In this document: piece after piece, positions 1-14,405 of the stretch
How the letters are laid out: every line of letters begins with the position of its first letter
How positions within the stretch are numbered: position 1 is the stretch's first letter
From: a virus
Lineage: Duplodnaviria > Caudoviricetes
DNA: 64,000 nt
Reading direction: 5' to 3' (one strand)
IMG/VR virus record: IMGVR_UViG_3300042013_000103
Made by a program: the position numbers and the translations under genes
Notes under the pieces: generated by a model
The model's input: the letters and a program-made list of their open reading frames with translations, nothing else
The model's database searches: none
What the model was told of the DNA's origin: nothing

Positions 1-937
1 ACAAAGCCAAGCGTTGCTTGAGGGCATTGAGTTCCGCGGTATCAAACACCCCGTCGGAGTCACTGTCACTTTTCAGGTCAGGCACCGGGAGCAGTTTAAA
101 GGACAATCCGCGGGCGGTGTTCACCATGAACTTCCAGTCGCGGAGTTCTTCCGTGTCGGTTTTGGTGGGACCCCCCGCGTACAGCGCTTTGTTCCCTTGG
201 ACGGGCTGTCCCCGGTACACGTCCGCATCGGTGCGGAACCGGTCATCGTCTTCAATGCGCTCCGCGGCTTTTAACCACGTCTGCGGATTGAACGAACTGA
301 AGTCCACCGCGGCTTCATCAGTGAACTCTTTGTCAAAGCTCAGTTTCGACAACACCCCGGTGAGGGTGTCCACGTACCGGATAAATACTTTGTCAAAAAA
401 GTCGAACGAGTTGTTGGACAACTCCACCAAGGGACGGACTTCGCCCGGGAGGACTTTACCGTCGAGCACGAACTTGGCGTGCGTCGGCAGGGTGTAAGTG
501 GTTTGGTGAGGTTTGGTTGACCCCAGGTTCCCCACGCGTTCCACCAGCATGTGCAGGTGTTCTTGAACCCGCTGTGCCCCCGAGTTGATCAACCCGGAGT
601 AATCGAGGGACTGGGTGAGCAGCAGTTTGATCATCGACATCGCCGCGTCCCATGTGGTCTTGGCCGATTCGGTGATGTCCTCTAAGCCCAACCGGTGTTT
701 GCTGGTGATGTACTGCAACATGGCCAGGTCCGGGGTCAGGGCGTGCTGCATAAAAGCGGAATGTACGGACCACTGGGTTTGCAGTCCATTGGCGGTGACG
801 TCTACCCGTGCGGCAGCCGCTTCTAGTCCAACTTGAAGGCGCGACAACAGTGCGCCAAACGAGTCAGACATATCGGTGGGGTCACCCCCACCGACTGTCG
901 TTGCTGGTAACGGGAGACGTTGGGTAACGTCGTCCAT
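1..937 (-). CDS. Virion head/inner-body protein (phiKZ gp92-like), 3' end runs off the window
   Basis: Not in the ORF track. Manual translation from ATG at 937 (MDDVTQRLPL...HRLGLEDITESAK...) stays open to base 1. It has a G-L-E motif typical of prohead-protease sites and follows the head-gene cluster. Confidence 0.7.
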   Translation of the reverse strand, partial: MDDVTQRLPLPATTVGGGDPTDMSDSFGALLSRLQVGLEAAAARVDVTANGLQTQWSVHSAFMQHALTPDLAMLQYITSKHRLGLEDITESAKTTWDAAMSMIKLLLTQSLDYSGLINSGAQRVQEHLHMLVERVGNLGSTKPHQTTYTLPTHAKFVLDGKVLPGEVRPLVELSNNSFDFFDKVFIRYVDTLTGVLSKLSFDKEFTDEAAVDFSSFNPQTWLKAAERIEDDDRFRTDADVYRGQPVQGNKALYAGGPTKTDTEELRDWKFMVNTARGLSFKLLPVPDLKSDSDSDGVFDTAELNALKQRLAL

Positions 938-9318: not shown

Positions 9319-10563
9319 TCAACGGGCAAGTTGTTTGAGTTGGTATGCTTGAACAAACATATCATTGTTTAGGAGGCCTTCGAGGGTCCGCTCTGTGGCT
9401 TCGTTCTGTTTGCCCTGACGGTAGTTAGGACGGAAGAAGTACAGCAGGCCATCGATCACGCCAGCGTGTTTGTTGTAAGTGTCCTCAATCACCGTCAACT
9501 GCTGGATGTCTTCCAGAATCGCGGGTTTGAGGGACGGGTCTTTCACGTTGCGGAGTTGGTTTACCAAATCCAACCGAATGCGGCGTGCGCGGTCTTTGGC
9601 GTGGTCGTATTTTTGCCCCAAGTCGGGGGCGAACAGGATCAGTCCCAGGACAAAAGGCGCCACCAGCAGATACCCCAACCCACGGACCACTTCCATTTTC
9701 CAGAAGTTCCCCACGGACTCGAAGTACCCGGGCACTTCCGCTTGGTCCACCCGGCTCAAGGCCAGCACCAGGTCTTTGCCAAAACCCAACCGACTGGGGA
9801 TCACGTCGGCCAATTGCTCGTCCCGGCGCAAATCGTTCTGGGTGGTGCCAAACAAATGTGGACGGGCCAACGTGCGCCACGACGACAGCACGGCCCGTCG
9901 GGTGTTCTCCACGGTGCGGTTGTGGATGAACTCGTTGCGCAAGGTCGGGTCTTGGATTTGTTTGGCAATCTGCGTGTGGTCGAGGATCTCGAGTTTGTAC
10001 ACGTTCGGCCGCTGACCCATCAACACTTCCGTGCCTTCGGTGAGCATGTAGTTCAACAGCACGTAATCGCCCATGGTGGCAAAGAAGTCAAACGCATGGG
10101 CGTACTCGTGCAGCAGCATCGCCGTGACTTCGCGGTCGGTGGTGTCCTCGAACGGACCCGCGAGGTAGGCGTAGGAGACGTGCAGCACGAACGGAAACTC
10201 GCGGGCAAACTTGCCCCCCACCACCATGCGATCCAGGTCCACCGTGAGCTCTTCGTACAGGCCCATCGACGACGTGACGTTGGTCTGTCCCAGCGCACCG
10301 GCTTGACGGGAACCGGAGTGCCCACTGATTGGGGCCAGTTGAATGGCCATGATGTTCTGCCGGGTTGTGTGCCACACCACCTCGATGGTGATCCCCCGGG
10401 AATTGAACAGGTCCACCAGTGTTTTGTTGGCCTTGGCGTCCAAGGTCTGGGTGGTGCGGTAGTGCGTCCGCAGGGCGGTCACGGCAGCCAGTACGTCAGC
10501 CCCAAACTGACGGTCCACGTTGACGTTCACGGCTTCCTTAGAAAGGGTAAAAGGGGCTTTCAT
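9319..10563 (-). CDS. Virion protein with HExxH zinc-metalloprotease-like motif (phiKZ gp84-like)
   Basis: 414 aa; LLHEYAHAFD motif, downstream E..AD motif and a hydrophobic segment (GLGYLLVAPFVLGLILF). Confidence 0.6.
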   Translation of the reverse strand: MKAPFTLSKEAVNVNVDRQFGADVLAAVTALRTHYRTTQTLDAKANKTLVDLFNSRGITIEVVWHTTRQNIMAIQLAPISGHSGSRQAGALGQTNVTSSMGLYEELTVDLDRMVVGGKFAREFPFVLHVSYAYLAGPFEDTTDREVTAMLLHEYAHAFDFFATMGDYVLLNYMLTEGTEVLMGQRPNVYKLEILDHTQIAKQIQDPTLRNEFIHNRTVENTRRAVLSSWRTLARPHLFGTTQNDLRRDEQLADVIPSRLGFGKDLVLALSRVDQAEVPGYFESVGNFWKMEVVRGLGYLLVAPFVLGLILFAPDLGQKYDHAKDRARRIRLDLVNQLRNVKDPSLKPAILEDIQQLTVIEDTYNKHAGVIDGLLYFFRPNYRQGKQNEATERTLEGLLNNDMFVQAYQLKQLAR

Positions 10564-10666
10564 TGTAACCGTCCTTTAGTGGGTTAATGGAATCATAAGA
10601 ATAGGGTGGCGCAGTTCTACTAGGGGGTCTAATGGTACATGATGGATTTGATTATTTGGGGCTAAC

Positions 10667-12415
10667 ATGACCGACCTAAGCTACACCAAGGCAGACGTAC
10701 TGGGGATCGAAGCAAAGCACATCACCTACGTCACCGACCAGTATGGCAAATACGACGACGCCCATGTCGTGAAAGAAATCATTCACTTGAAAGACGGTCG
10801 GAAAATCCCCAACCTCAAAGTGATCACCAACTACGAGCGGCCATTTTGGGTCACCGAGAAAGGGCGGCAGAACCACACCGAGAAGAAAGATTATGAGTAC
10901 GTCGCTAACACTCGCAAATACATGTCTACTCAAATCAACCTCAGCCGTTCCATTGCACGGGTACTGGGCGATTACAGCATGGGCCCCAACCCACGTTTAC
11001 GACAGTTGGCTCGCAGTCCTTTCCTTTACGGTTCAGACGTGTCGGGCGGTGCTTGTTTAAAGAACGCTTACCGTAAGCGGTGCCCGGACTTGATCTCGAA
11101 GAACACCGTGGCCGGTGGCGACATCGAAACCAACGTTTACGAGGCCGACAAAGACGGGCAGATCATCTGCATGTCCGTGACGTACAAGACCAAAGTGTTC
11201 CTGGCGTACTACAAAGGCTGGATCAAGGACATCCCGGACGTCGTCGAGCAAACGCACAAACTGGCCACGGAAGTGCCGGAGCTCAAAGAACTGATTGAGA
11301 AGCGGGGGTTGGTGCTGGAAGTGGTGGTGTGTGACACCCCTGCCCAAGTGGCGATCGACTGCATCGCGAAGCTGCACGAATGGAAACCGGACTTCTTCTC
11401 GTTCTGGAACATGGACTTCGACATTAGTCGCATCCTGAAGAACCTGAACCAATACGGCGTGGACCCGAAAGATGTGTTCTCGGACCAGTCCGTACCGAAG
11501 AACTTCCGCTACTTCGACTACAACCAAGCGCAAGCCAAGACCACCACCGCATCGGGCGTGACCAAGTCCAAGTCGATGGAGGAACTGTGGAACTGGGTGA
11601 CCACACCGGCACACTTCCAGTGCATCGACGCCATGTCGATTTACCGGGCATTGCGGATTGCGAAAGGCAAGGAACCTTCTTATGCCCTGGACCGTATCCT
11701 CAAGAAAGAACTGAAGATCAGCAAGCTGAAGTTTCCGGGGGCTGAACACCTCACCGGCATCGACTGGCACAAATACATGCAGACCGAACAGAAAGTGTTC
11801 TACGGTTTGTACAACATCGTCGACAGCATCCGTCTGGAACAACTGGACGAACACGTCAACGACCTGTCGTCGTCGATCACGATGTTTTCCAAGTACTCGG
11901 ACTTCAAGAACTTCAACTCTAACCCGAAGCGGCTGTGCGACGACATGCATTTCTGGTACCTGGCCCGTCCAGAACCCCGCGTGATCGGTTCCTCGTCGGA
12001 CAAAATGGTGCACGACCTCGACCGTTACGTGATCGGGCACGAGGATTGGATCACGACCTTGCCATCGTACATGGCAGGGCCCAACGGCATGGCATGCATT
12101 AAAGGCTTCCCCGGGTACGGGTCACTGATCTGGTCGCACGTGGCCGACTTGGACATTGTGTCGACGTACCCGACCGTGTCGCAGAACTTGAACATCGCCC
12201 GGGAAACCGTGGTGATGGAGTTCGGGCAGATGAAAGGGATTCCGGAAGTCTGGCGCCGAGAAGTCGGGGTGAACTTAACCGGGGGTCGGACCAACGCCGT
12301 GGAGATCTGTCAGAAGATTCTGAAAGGCCCTTCCATGGACCAGTTGCTGAAGAACTACCTGGCTATGAAAGCAGGGGCACCGATGGAGGCACAACCGTCT
12401 AGTCTGGGAAAGTAG
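10667..12415 (+). CDS. Split family-B DNA polymerase, 3'-5' exonuclease plus motif A subunit (phiKZ gp82-like)
   Basis: ExoI DIET, ExoII WNMDFD, ExoIII YNIVDS and polymerase motif A DLDIVSTYP. Confidence 0.85.
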   Translation: MTDLSYTKADVLGIEAKHITYVTDQYGKYDDAHVVKEIIHLKDGRKIPNLKVITNYERPFWVTEKGRQNHTEKKDYEYVANTRKYMSTQINLSRSIARVLGDYSMGPNPRLRQLARSPFLYGSDVSGGACLKNAYRKRCPDLISKNTVAGGDIETNVYEADKDGQIICMSVTYKTKVFLAYYKGWIKDIPDVVEQTHKLATEVPELKELIEKRGLVLEVVVCDTPAQVAIDCIAKLHEWKPDFFSFWNMDFDISRILKNLNQYGVDPKDVFSDQSVPKNFRYFDYNQAQAKTTTASGVTKSKSMEELWNWVTTPAHFQCIDAMSIYRALRIAKGKEPSYALDRILKKELKISKLKFPGAEHLTGIDWHKYMQTEQKVFYGLYNIVDSIRLEQLDEHVNDLSSSITMFSKYSDFKNFNSNPKRLCDDMHFWYLARPEPRVIGSSSDKMVHDLDRYVIGHEDWITTLPSYMAGPNGMACIKGFPGYGSLIWSHVADLDIVSTYPTVSQNLNIARETVVMEFGQMKGIPEVWRREVGVNLTGGRTNAVEICQKILKGPSMDQLLKNYLAMKAGAPMEAQPSSLGK

Positions 12416-12792
12416 TTTACCGGTGGAAGCGCTACGACGGCTATGAGTGTTCGAGTAAAGGGGACACGCGTTACAGTGCCCTCTTTGCGGTGCTGCCTGA
12501 CGGACGGACGATCGAGGAAGCGTACCAATTGGATTGCAAGGGGTGGCGCTCAGAGAGCAATGACTGGCGCTATGGCAAAGGAAAGCCTCCCAAAGACACC
12601 TCCGTCGACCTGTGGGCCGAGTACAAGCAACTCTGGAACACGTGGGCCGATGCCAACCCCGAGCTGCTGCAAGAGCTGGCCACCACGGCGAAGGAATACC
12701 ACGACTGCACCTTGTCGGACATGTTCGCCTCCACTGACATATCCCAAGCCAGAGCCCTGGCGGAGATCTTGAATGAACGCGCTGTCGTTTGA
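12403..12792 (+). CDS. NADAR-like (YbiA/T4 gp30.3 fold) domain; open from 12403, first canonical start only at GTG 12490
   Basis: Frame reads GKVVYRWKRYDGYECSSKGDTRYSALFAVLPDGRTIEEAYQLDCKG...NPELLQELATT...TLSDMF...SQARALAEIL. Order and spacing parallel the NADAR motifs FSNF, DG..TSEHYFQAQK, HAELRALLLAT, KLVE and NRLGYLL (manual comparison). Confidence 0.5.
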   Translation, partial: SGKVVYRWKRYDGYECSSKGDTRYSALFAVLPDGRTIEEAYQLDCKGWRSESNDWRYGKGKPPKDTSVDLWAEYKQLWNTWADANPELLQELATTAKEYHDCTLSDMFASTDISQARALAEILNERAVV

Positions 12793-12804
12793 AGGGGACT
12801 TAAG

Positions 12805-13161
12805 ATGAACCTGACTCAATGGTTGTTGGTCAAGCTGGCGGAAGAAGCCAATGAGATGGGCAAGGAAGCTCTAAAGGGCAGTCAGTTTGGGTTGGATTCC
12901 GATTTTCAAGGGACCACCAACGCAGAGTTGATCACCAAGGAGTACAACGACCTCAGGGCCGTCATTGGGTTTGGAACCCTGTTGAATAACCAGAGTCATT
13001 TTGCCAAGTTATTCAGTGATCTTCCTGATGCGGTGTTTTGGCCCCGGGCTTACAAGCTGAGCCACTACGCCTTGCAGTCGCACCGCATTGGTTTACTGAC
13101 CTTAAGCGAAGAGCAACTACGTCAACTGGAAGGCTACGCCAAACAACACCCCGTCAGTTAA
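12805..13161 (+). CDS. MazG-like nucleotide pyrophosphohydrolase-family protein
   Basis: KLAEEANE...KEYNDL acidic helix pattern typical of the all-alpha NTP-PPase fold; 118 aa. Confidence 0.6.
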   Translation: MNLTQWLLVKLAEEANEMGKEALKGSQFGLDSDFQGTTNAELITKEYNDLRAVIGFGTLLNNQSHFAKLFSDLPDAVFWPRAYKLSHYALQSHRIGLLTLSEEQLRQLEGYAKQHPVS

Positions 13162-13162
13162 A

Positions 13163-13200
13163 GGCATAATTGGCTTCCCCTAGGGGAAGCCAATATGTCG
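13163..13200. terminator. Bidirectional hairpin flanked by GGCATA and TATGTCG
   Basis: ATTGGCTTCCCC/GGGGAAGCCAAT inverted repeat between convergent stops at 13161 and 13203. Confidence 0.8.
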
Positions 13201-13202
13201 TC

Positions 13203-14405
13203 TTAAGGTACCAGTTCCAACACAGGACGCCAACCGTAGCCGGTTGCTGTGGAGTTGACTGGCTGATACCACATGCCGTCAATCGTCGGGTAACCAGGGG
13301 CACAGTGACCGCCAGAGGTACTCGCTTCTTGGCAAGTGGTCAGCTGGCCATTGGTAGACCCGCCATCAACACCCAGTTGTGCTGGAGTGTAGGTGCCGTG
13401 GACTGCGTTGGTCAGGCCGACCATGTAGTTGAGCCACTCTCGCCCGATCGCACTGCCGGGGGACGCGGTGGAACCCAACATCAAACGCACTTTGAACGTC
13501 CGCCCACCGATGACCACCGTGGTGTTGCCGGTCACCAGGTTTGCGGTATTCAACTGCTCCCAGCTGATGCCAATGCGAATTGGCAGTTTAGGGAAGTAGA
13601 TTTCTTTACCGGCGTCGATGAAGTGCATCCATGGCGAAGCCGTGTTAATCGAAGCCCCTGCCGTCAGGTTCACGGCGGTGGCCAACGCTTCAGGGGTGAT
13701 GAACGAGGCTGCCGCCACCTCCCCTTGGAACGGAGTCACGGGCAGCGTGGATTTCACAATGACCATCGGTCGCCAGCCGTTGTGGAAGTCCACTTGAGAG
13801 GGGATGTTGTACCACACTCCCATGATGTTCGGATTGGAGTTGGCACTGTAGCCCCGGACGTAGTGACCACGGCTTTCGGCTTCCAAGCACACCGTGGTGG
13901 ACCCGTTCGCGGTCGTGGCTGCATCTGCACTGATGCCCAGCATCTCATCGGTGTAATCGCTCCAATGGGGCGTGTCCCCCGGCAAGGAACCCCGGTAGAT
14001 GCCTCCGTAGATCGGGTACAGGAAGTTGTTCCAATCCCCACCGGCGTTGCTGTCGGTTGCTCCCGTGGATGGGTTAGCCGCGCCGGTCATGAAATGCACC
14101 ACGTGGTCCTCGCCGTTGATGGAAATAGTCTTCCCTGCTTGGGCGGTGTTGATTTGTTCCCACGAGAGATTATAGCGGAGGGTCTTACGGGCTAAGTAAA
14201 ACTCCAGTCCCTCGAGGGTGATGTAGTGCAACCACCCCACGTCCGAGTTGTGTACGCTGCCGGCAGTCAGGTTCAGTTCAGCGGCCAAGTCCGTCGCTGT
14301 GATGAAGTCCTCGTTGGACACATAGCCTTTGAACACGGTGTTGTCTAATACGGGTGGTGGTTCCCACGGTGCCCCTGACAGGGAACTCAACATGATCTCA
14401 AACAT
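13203..14405 (-). CDS. Virion tail-associated protein with two tandem copies of one domain (phiKZ gp83/gp131-135-type family)
   Basis: Two repeats of F.G.V....FIT...LA...NLTAG...W.H.I......SWEQ.NTA...GWRP. Confidence 0.6.
   Translation of the reverse strand: MFEIMLSSLSGAPWEPPPVLDNTVFKGYVSNEDFITATDLAAELNLTAGSVHNSDVGWLHYITLEGLEFYLARKTLRYNLSWEQINTAQAGKTISINGEDHVVHFMTGAANPSTGATDSNAGGDWNNFLYPIYGGIYRGSLPGDTPHWSDYTDEMLGISADAATTANGSTTVCLEAESRGHYVRGYSANSNPNIMGVWYNIPSQVDFHNGWRPMVIVKSTLPVTPFQGEVAAASFITPEALATAVNLTAGASINTASPWMHFIDAGKEIYFPKLPIRIGISWEQLNTANLVTGNTTVVIGGRTFKVRLMLGSTASPGSAIGREWLNYMVGLTNAVHGTYTPAQLGVDGGSTNGQLTTCQEASTSGGHCAPGYPTIDGMWYQPVNSTATGYGWRPVLELVP

Follow-up and report, generated by a model that had tools for sequence, protein, structure and literature searches.

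How is a conserved protein domain to be made from an open reading frame (ORF) whose start codon has decayed? This question is raised by a locus in a 64,000-nucleotide (nt) stretch of viral DNA (IMG/VR virus record IMGVR_UViG_3300042013_000103; Duplodnaviria; Caudoviricetes), hereafter referred to as the window. Here, an ORF for the N-terminal part of a DNA polymerase runs, at its stop codon, into a second ORF in the -1 frame that encodes a small NADAR-fold domain. A first-pass annotation, made from the letters of this DNA alone, had proposed that a programmed -1 frameshift fuses the two, and this interpretation is supported by a slippery heptamer conserved in 26/26 junction variants, by repeated loss of the start codon, and by apparent natural fusions. 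The comparative evidence strongly backs a -1 frameshift, which we regard as the likely means by which the domain is translated.

Under the proposed mechanism, most ribosomes would terminate at TAG 12413 and release the polymerase of 582 amino acids (aa), while a minority would slip by -1 on G_GGA_AAG, the P-site tRNA-Gly re-pairing from GGA to GGG and the A-site tRNA-Lys from AAG to AAA. The slipped ribosomes would read 126 more codons to give a 708-aa polymerase (582 + 126; predicted junction ..SSLGK/VVYRW..) with a C-terminal NADAR-fold domain of 125 aa. This domain would formerly have been a free-standing phage gene beginning M-Y-x-W-K-R; because its start codon in the window has decayed to GTT, slippage would be the only visible route to the complete domain. 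Heptamers of the form X_XXA_AAG are the classic bacterial -1 sites (for example, A_AAA_AAG of dnaX and G_GGA_AAG of lambda G/GT), and since the lone tRNA-Lys pairs better with AAA than with AAG, tandem slippage on such sites is favoured. We infer the shift itself, and its rate would probably be modest.

The anatomy of the junction leaves little room for any other entry into the domain frame. The polymerase ORF ends CTG GGA AAG TAG, with the heptamer in the X_XXY_YYZ register and the stop codon directly behind it, an arrangement that may aid slippage through ribosome pausing. Upstream, the -1 frame is closed by a TAG codon (Table 1), which confines entry to 12403-12417; from that codon on it is open for 130 codons up to TGA 12790-12792 (128 counted from the heptamer), and the two frames are open together across 12403-12412 only. 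Among the entry codons TCT GGG AAA GTA GTT (12403-12417) there is no start and no near-cognate start, and the first ATG, GTG or TTG of the frame is GTG 12490, with no purine-rich ribosome-binding site (RBS) in front of it. This layout agrees base for base with the description given at first pass, from the stop codon, the heptamer and the frames to GTG 12490 and an upstream ATG 12383 with its AGGGG.

Table 1. Features of the polymerase-domain junction and its surroundings in the window
Feature	Position	Strand	Remarks
Polymerase N-terminal part ORF, 582 aa	10667-12415	+	phrog_3011; phiKZ gp82 homologue
GGAGG, Shine-Dalgarno-like	12387-12391	+	14 nt before the heptamer; window only, not conserved in relatives
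Upstream TAG of the -1 frame	12400-12402	+	Closes the -1 frame
Slippery heptamer G_GGA_AAG	12406-12412	+	X_XXY_YYZ register; GGA and AAG are polymerase-frame codons
-1 continuation, 126 codons + TGA, NADAR-fold domain (phrog_9995)	12412-12792	+	Predicted to be readable only after the shift
0-frame stop TAG	12413-12415	+	Directly 3' of the heptamer; terminates the unfused 582-aa polymerase
GTT at the ancestral start position of the family	12415-12417	+	Start codon lost; aligned with position 1 of the phrog_9995 profile
Next co-oriented ORF, 118 aa	12805-13161	+	Own AGGGGA RBS and ATG; context only

Heptamers of this kind are rare in the window. In-frame X_XXA_AAG occurs only 5 times in 17,620 codons (55 long ORFs), and the chance of finding one within the last four codons of a given gene is about 0.001. 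Only the heptamer at 12406-12412 leads into a long, conserved -1 ORF extending beyond the 0-frame stop. As a separate observation, the ORF at 18-497 (+) contains an in-frame A_AAA_AAG at 395-401, 31 codons before its stop; beyond this heptamer the -1 frame has 41 open codons, its end lying 23 nt past the 0-frame stop.

The segment lying ahead of GTG 12490, which had been taken at first pass for the N-terminus of the domain, proved to be exactly that. Position 2 of the phrog_9995 profile aligns with residue 6 of the -1 translation (expectation value (E) 2.9e-51), and this segment is therefore true domain. From a collection of 164 domain homologues, an alignment with 51 gave 27 invariant columns, and the window keeps 27/27; all 19 nearly invariant positions are kept as well, and the ORF has no internal stop. 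Eight of the 27 invariant residues (E15, S17, G20, D21, R23, S25, A26 and A29) precede GTG 12490, and a product begun at that codon would miss the domain core. When the 24 start-less codons (12418-12489) were compared with those of 12 relatives, the proportion of nonsynonymous differences (pN) was 0.09-0.28, while that of synonymous differences (pS) was saturated at 0.7-1.2, giving pN/pS ratios of 0.08-0.31. The invariant residues and the low pN/pS together argue that the start-less segment is translated and under selection.

To learn how widely the arrangement is shared, one may turn to junctions gathered from GenBank phages, IMG/VR, ENA/Logan contigs and JGI metagenomes, which fall into five layouts. 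In the related jumbo phages whose domain lies in the -1 frame, an in-frame X_XXA_AAG opens into the domain in every one of the distinct junction variants: C_CCA_AAG in 14, A_AAA_AAG in 10 and G_GGA_AAG in 2. In heptamer register, in its start-less conserved -1 ORF and in a pattern conserved across diverged relatives more closely than coding requires, the junction matches the bacterial X_XXA_AAG class of -1 frameshift sites. In five chimalliviruses that have no domain (SEGD1, FLC1-1B, EL, BONAISHI and RAY), no in-frame X_XXY_YYZ was found in the last 60 polymerase codons (0/5).

The first set of these relatives, group A (16 variants), carries X_XXA_AAG 7-10 nt before the polymerase stop, which follows immediately or one codon later. 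Its C_CCA_AAG members include phiKZ, PhiPA3, 201phi2-1, Phabio, PS119XW, Viktualia and L050, the closest relative of the window; G_GGA_AAG arose twice, in the window and in the distant L106, whose polymerase C-terminal part is just 51% identical. When 14 group A variants (12 CCC, 2 GGG) were aligned on the heptamer, XXXAAAG was invariant, with the 24 nt upstream unconserved (mean commonest-base fraction 0.49) and the polymerase tails of group A varying in length and sequence. The X triplet in these 14 is either CCC or GGG, with no mixtures. At the codon before the heptamer, eight amino acids (L, N, S, P, A, V, K and R) occur, and the third base of this codon equals X in 14/14. At 201phi2-1-type junctions (L003:589-625, L001:3085-3120 and L056:1477-1512), a 12-nt insertion (..GTAAGCCCAAGT..) was also observed, which resembles a partial duplication of the CCCAAAGT heptamer region and, in the -1 frame, places S-P-S-I between heptamer and domain.

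A second set, group C (10 variants, Noxifer included), has a perfect A_AAA_AAG right at the end of the conserved polymerase sequence. Past this heptamer, the 0 frame holds an unconserved tail of 8-32 residues and the -1 frame holds the domain; no -1-frame start was found at or before the conserved N-terminal part of the domain near the junction. Conservation of the slippery site in related jumbo phages, or natural in-frame fusions, had been named at first pass as a check; the pattern survives switches among CCC, GGG and AAA, and apparent in-frame fusions are described below.

The fate of the start codon provides a further line of evidence. The Met of M-[YF]-x-[WY], with which free-standing homologues start, aligns with GTT 12415. 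In group A, the ancestral start position still holds ATG in PhiPA3 and L059 and GTG in L050, 201phi2-1, Viktualia and L056. Elsewhere it holds a non-start codon: ATA in the phiKZ type, GTA in Phabio (which reads GTA GTA), ACT or ACA in L058, L061 and L063, and GTT in the window. PS119XW also has ATA there, its sole nearby start being a GTG that lies one codon upstream and shares bases with the TGA stop. From these codons, the start was lost at least four times (GTT, ATA, GTA and ACT/ACA) with the ORF undecayed, which is as expected if another route of translation exists.

Could that other route be a restart rather than a shift? A free domain of approximately 14 kDa might be made after termination at TAG 12413 by reinitiation on the non-standard GTT 12415 or GTA 12412, with neither shift nor fusion. 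Such a restart would suit the position of GTT, which coincides with the ATG or GTG of free-standing homologues and of the closest relative, and relatives do show the stop/start overlaps usual for translational coupling (TAATG in PhiPA3 and L059, GTGA in PS119XW and TAGTG in L050). To our knowledge, however, none of GTT, GTA, ACT and ACA is a known initiator, or even a near-cognate one. Nor can restart after termination explain group C, where the domain N-terminus lies 31-103 nt upstream of the polymerase stop and has no start, yet a perfect A_AAA_AAG is present. It would also leave unaccounted for an invariant XXXAAAG that switches between CCC and GGG beside unconserved flanks. We consider a restart unlikely, although it is the best placed of the alternatives to a frameshift.

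Loss of the start might instead mean that the domain is a young pseudogene, with GTG changed to GTT, an ORF that has so far escaped decay, and a heptamer that is merely the inherited polymerase C-terminus. A single base change would suffice, given that L050, whose domain is 78% identical, retains GTG. Against this stand the complete set of invariant and nearly invariant positions kept in the window (27/27 and 19/19, with no internal stop) and synonymous sites that are saturated in comparison with every relative while pN is only 0.09-0.28. At least three further start-less lineages, many phiKZ isolates among them, also have an intact ORF, and in the lineage of the window the heptamer switched from CCC to GGG and remained slippery. 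A recent pseudogene is accordingly very improbable.

About equally improbable is a short product, which the first-pass annotation had entertained as a second possibility: a protein of approximately 136 aa, begun at ATG 12383 and extended by the same -1 shift, made with or without the long fusion. This ATG is a polymerase-frame codon, eight codons ahead of the heptamer, with AGGGG (12373-12377) five bases upstream as its RBS. The proposal finds no support in conservation; relatives lack an in-frame start with an RBS at the matching place, and in phiKZ and Phabio the last 12 codons are free of any such start. The purine run GGAGG at 12387-12391 might just as well act as a stimulator of -1 slippage from the 5' side, a possible role suggested by analogy with dnaX. 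Moreover, the short product still requires the frameshift, and would be an addition to the shift described above rather than a replacement for it.

An assembly or sequencing indel hiding a domain that is truly in frame or properly started is hardly credible: the junction does contain short runs of G and A, and one related contig (L093) is in frame by virtue of an extra C, but more than 60 independently sequenced GenBank phage genomes show the same -1 arrangement, and the window agrees over 12100-12492, base for base and gap-free, with contigs assembled in two metagenome runs (depths 55 and 205) that come from separate studies and years, the sharing of the junction by two assemblies making such an error unlikely. 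One of these runs may be the window's own source, in which case the other is independent. Two wastewater runs of possible RNA origin yielded partial contigs only, which end ahead of the junction or fall outside it. Transcriptional slippage was also considered as the source of the shift and was rejected for the window, where the runs are only G3 and A3.

The -1 frameshift is not the only way in which this polymerase and this domain appear to be brought together. In L079, L081/L082 and L094, the domain lies in the polymerase frame behind a single TAG (L079:1682-1684; L081/L082:2120-2122; in L094, a stop after ..GAG GAT), which is followed by CTG or CTA; there is no start codon, and L079 has no further TAG in its 560 polymerase codons. 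On its sequence, this layout is a candidate case of stop-codon read-through or of a suppressor tRNA. In two metagenome contigs, polymerase and domain form one continuous ORF (L093:1250-1355 and L108:1279-1384). The junction of L093, ..ESEPPK-VVSPSIVYTWKR.., is the transframe product predicted for 201phi2-1-type phages, and a single additional C in a C6 run sets this contig apart from 201phi2-1; L108 has an additional frame break inside the polymerase near 994-1027 and is less trustworthy.

Beyond these phages, in other phages and in metagenomes, phrog_9995 domains occur in single-ORF fusions with other nucleic-acid enzymes. In P0128, phrog_9995 (residues 1-120) precedes a phage family A DNA polymerase (phrog_17, residues 109-884, E 1.8e-87), and P0125 has a similar arrangement of domain and family A DNA polymerase. 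P0148 and its relatives, a cluster of 114 members, join the domain to a T7-like RNA polymerase region. Further partners are RNase H (P0150), a DprA/SLOG-like domain (P0130 and P0131) and DUF4326 (P0126 and P0151). Such repeated joining to nucleic-acid enzymes fits a role on DNA or RNA and delivery by a polymerase.

Several points weigh against a frameshift, or limit its reach, and need to be set beside the evidence above. The case for the shift is wholly comparative. In 7 of the 16 group A variants, ATG or GTG is retained at or beside the ancestral start, and in many cases this codon and the polymerase stop overlap; these seven might initiate the domain independently through coupling, and the heptamer there could in principle be a passenger. 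No conserved stem-loop or pseudoknot was found 3' of the heptamer (RNAalifold consensus -1.5 kcal/mol): single-sequence folds gave hairpins that differ from phage to phage, and the 88 nt of the window that were folded do no better than shuffled sequences (z -0.3). In view of this, the efficiency of shifting may be just a few percent. The continuous ORFs of L093 and L108 could be homopolymer or indel errors instead of true fusions.

A further point of this kind concerns 12 variants of the D6, Psa21 and RVTF4 type (L007, L009-L012, L047, L048, L071, L074 and L102-L104), which carry an invariant GAA_AAG_AAG followed by the domain in the +1 frame. Slippage by -1 would not reach the domain in these relatives, and the fusion model as drawn for the window does not cover all lineages. 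At the ancestral start position, this group has GTG, TTG, CTG, ACG, TCG or nothing, and its domain could be reached by coupled initiation, by a +1 event, or by -2 re-pairing, in which tRNA-Lys leaves AAG for the AAA just before it.

What the frameshift would append to the polymerase can be judged from the predicted structure of the domain. An AlphaFold (AF2) model built from 52 sequences (predicted local distance difference test 96.3; predicted template modelling score 0.89) has a YbiA-like alpha-helical core with small beta sheets. In an exhaustive structure comparison with VIA-align, the Geobacter NADAR 8bat ranked first (Z 8.2, 121 aligned residues, root-mean-square deviation 3.7), followed by E. 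coli YbiA 2b3w (Z 7.4) and the Phytophthora NADAR 8bau (Z 7.0), with the next match at 4.2. The top Foldseek names from PDB and AFDB were NADAR, YbiA and DUF1768, with weak E-values. Searches by sequence were negative: with the cut-off at E 10, Pfam (PF08719 included) gave 0 matches for the domain or for the 52 homologues of the alignment; PDB, searched with a profile of the domain, returned no NADAR and only chance matches to ribosomal protein L3; hhalign of the domain against E. coli YbiA gave no signal (probability 0.1); and a feature search of the ESM Atlas with the domain gave no usable match. The first-pass label of NADAR-like thus stands at the level of fold, where the three NADAR/YbiA structures are the sole clear matches, and does not stand by sequence, in Pfam or profiles. 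On the model, this is a compact, divergent NADAR-fold domain.

Solved NADARs are longer (160-219 aa against approximately 125 aa), and, unlike them, the window domain has no match to PF08719 or to profiles, has no DarT neighbour, and belongs to a family that is fused or recoded onto polymerases. By eye, the run of motifs is alike (G-D-x-(x)-F-S, D-G-[KR]-T and E-x-x-x-Q-x-x-(x)-K): the invariant G-D-x-R-F-S-A, D-G-R-T and E38-x3-Q42-x3-K46 parallel GDFSNF, DGKT and SEHYFQAQK of YbiA, and the family-invariant D106 lies in a motif that, again by eye only, resembles YbiA LVE. In NADARs, the conserved Glu and Lys (E88 and K95 in the C7 NADAR of E. coli) serve in catalysis or phosphate binding and are needed for hydrolysis of the ADP-ribose-guanine linkage (PMC11543638); a further conserved site is the acidic D171/E173 position. 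NADARs are known as DarT1-associated antitoxins, and orphan NADARs of T4-like phages counter DarTG1 (PMC11543638, PMC11257639). We infer that the domain may strip nucleic acid of ADP-ribose-type adducts while joined to the polymerase, with which it is perhaps brought into the phage nucleus, and a counter-defence role, as an eraser of ADP-ribose placed by DarT1 at the replication fork, can reasonably be suggested.

The other half of the predicted fusion is the polymerase ORF. It matches the phrog_3011 "DNA polymerase" profile over residues 6-570 (E 2e-221), and it also shows a weak match to the exonuclease region of the RB69 polymerase; Pfam returned nothing relevant for this ORF. Exo I-III and polymerase motif A can be recognised in it by eye, and the ORF is on that account the N-terminal part of a split family B polymerase. 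The label of exonuclease subunit given at first pass was roughly right, the more exact assignment being a phiKZ gp82-type N-terminal part (phrog_3011). The C-terminal part of the window polymerase matched 289 phage records, and identity to the corresponding parts of phiKZ-like phages is 66-74%; at the nucleotide level, the closest relatives of the ORF are Pseudomonas jumbo phages, at just 66-72% identity. By profile and by synteny, with a gene order matching phiKZ, 201phi2-1 and Phabio, the locus belongs with the split family B polymerases of chimalliviruses. The window comes from a phiKZ-like jumbo phage (nucleus-forming, chimallivirus-type) of rhizosphere metagenomes.

Some further observations were made on these polymerase genes and on the neighbourhood of the junction. 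In PhiPA3, the polymerase gene is broken by a non-coding, stop-rich stretch of approximately 340 nt (L005:27-370), and in L081/L082 by one of approximately 450 nt at around 1350-1800. The two breaks share one site inside motif A (..ADLD/IVSTYP..) and are intron-like; the PhiPA3 record annotates the polymerase as ending at this interruption in motif A. In the window, a scan of 10400-13400 found no terminator or promoter on the + strand, and the co-oriented ORF downstream of the domain had no Pfam match at E up to 1.

A recoding mechanism of this kind is known; the gene pair is new, and it is conserved in a model group of phages. A full-text literature search found no report of recoding at a phiKZ-type polymerase. 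A close precedent is lambda gpG/gpGT, which has the identical heptamer G_GGA_AAG and, as predicted here, yields a C-terminally extended isoform from overlapping 0 and -1 frames. As here, lambda G/GT has no strong downstream RNA structure; it also lacks a strong stimulator. The lambda product, however, is a tail assembly chaperone rather than a replicative polymerase subunit with an enzyme-like domain, and, unlike in lambda, the 0-frame stop of the window abuts the heptamer and the extension would be a once-independent gene with a decayed start.

Another close precedent is E. coli dnaX (tau/gamma): it too is a replication gene that gives two isoforms through tRNA-Lys slippage on X_XXA_AAG, and group C shares its A_AAA_AAG. 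The dnaX shift, however, shortens the protein, with a Shine-Dalgarno-like element upstream and a stem-loop downstream as its drivers, whereas the shift proposed here would add a domain, and no conserved structure was found. A parallel for the product is offered by positive-strand RNA viruses, whose polyproteins hold NADAR or Macro domains beside the RNA polymerase (PMC9503650). There, too, an ADP-ribose-processing fold is physically joined to the replicase, as in the proposed phage fusion; those, however, are eukaryotic RNA viruses that process polyproteins, whereas here a DNA phage would make the link by translational recoding.

A wider reading of these layouts can be put forward only tentatively, as a possibility rather than an expectation. 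All nucleus-forming phages of the phiKZ lineage might use recoding to attach to their replicative polymerase a NADAR-like domain that de-ADP-ribosylates nucleic acid (or is a related N-glycosidase), and might do so through several devices: -1 slippage on C_CCA_AAG, G_GGA_AAG or A_AAA_AAG, a +1 or -2 event on GAA_AAG_AAG, read-through of a single TAG, or outright gene fusion. Recoding would then set the ratio of plain to armed polymerase, and the fused domain, perhaps entering the phage nucleus along with the polymerase, would be carried as an eraser through the shell to the fork, where it could clear host DarT-type adducts.

In deposited annotations, the domain ORF is broken up. In phiKZ, the domain is represented only by PHIKZ082.1, a 38-aa C-terminal fragment (L002:859-975) that was added from RNA-seq; RNA-seq read counts for this 38-aa annotation appear in a phiKZ omics supplement, and no entry for the domain region was found in the phiKZ proteome supplements searched. 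Viktualia carries three spurious small ORFs over the domain (CDS0342-0344, L001:3128-3477), two of them in wrong frames, and the domain calls of Phabio, D6, RVTF4 and PS119XW are truncated at the 5' end. The practical consequence is that gene callers truncate or fragment the domain ORF in most deposited genomes, as these six phages illustrate.

If the frameshift is real, a conserved polymerase isoform with an extra enzyme-like domain has been overlooked in phiKZ, the model nucleus-forming phage. The phage genes expressed through -1 frameshifts form a short list, mostly of tail chaperones, capsid proteins and transposases, to which a replication enzyme would be added. The junctions collected here would also show with unusual clarity, as a natural series, how one fusion is achieved through several recoding devices. 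For the biology of these phages, the finding would supply a concrete hypothesis of how a small counter-defence enzyme gets to DNA that is sealed inside the phage nucleus.

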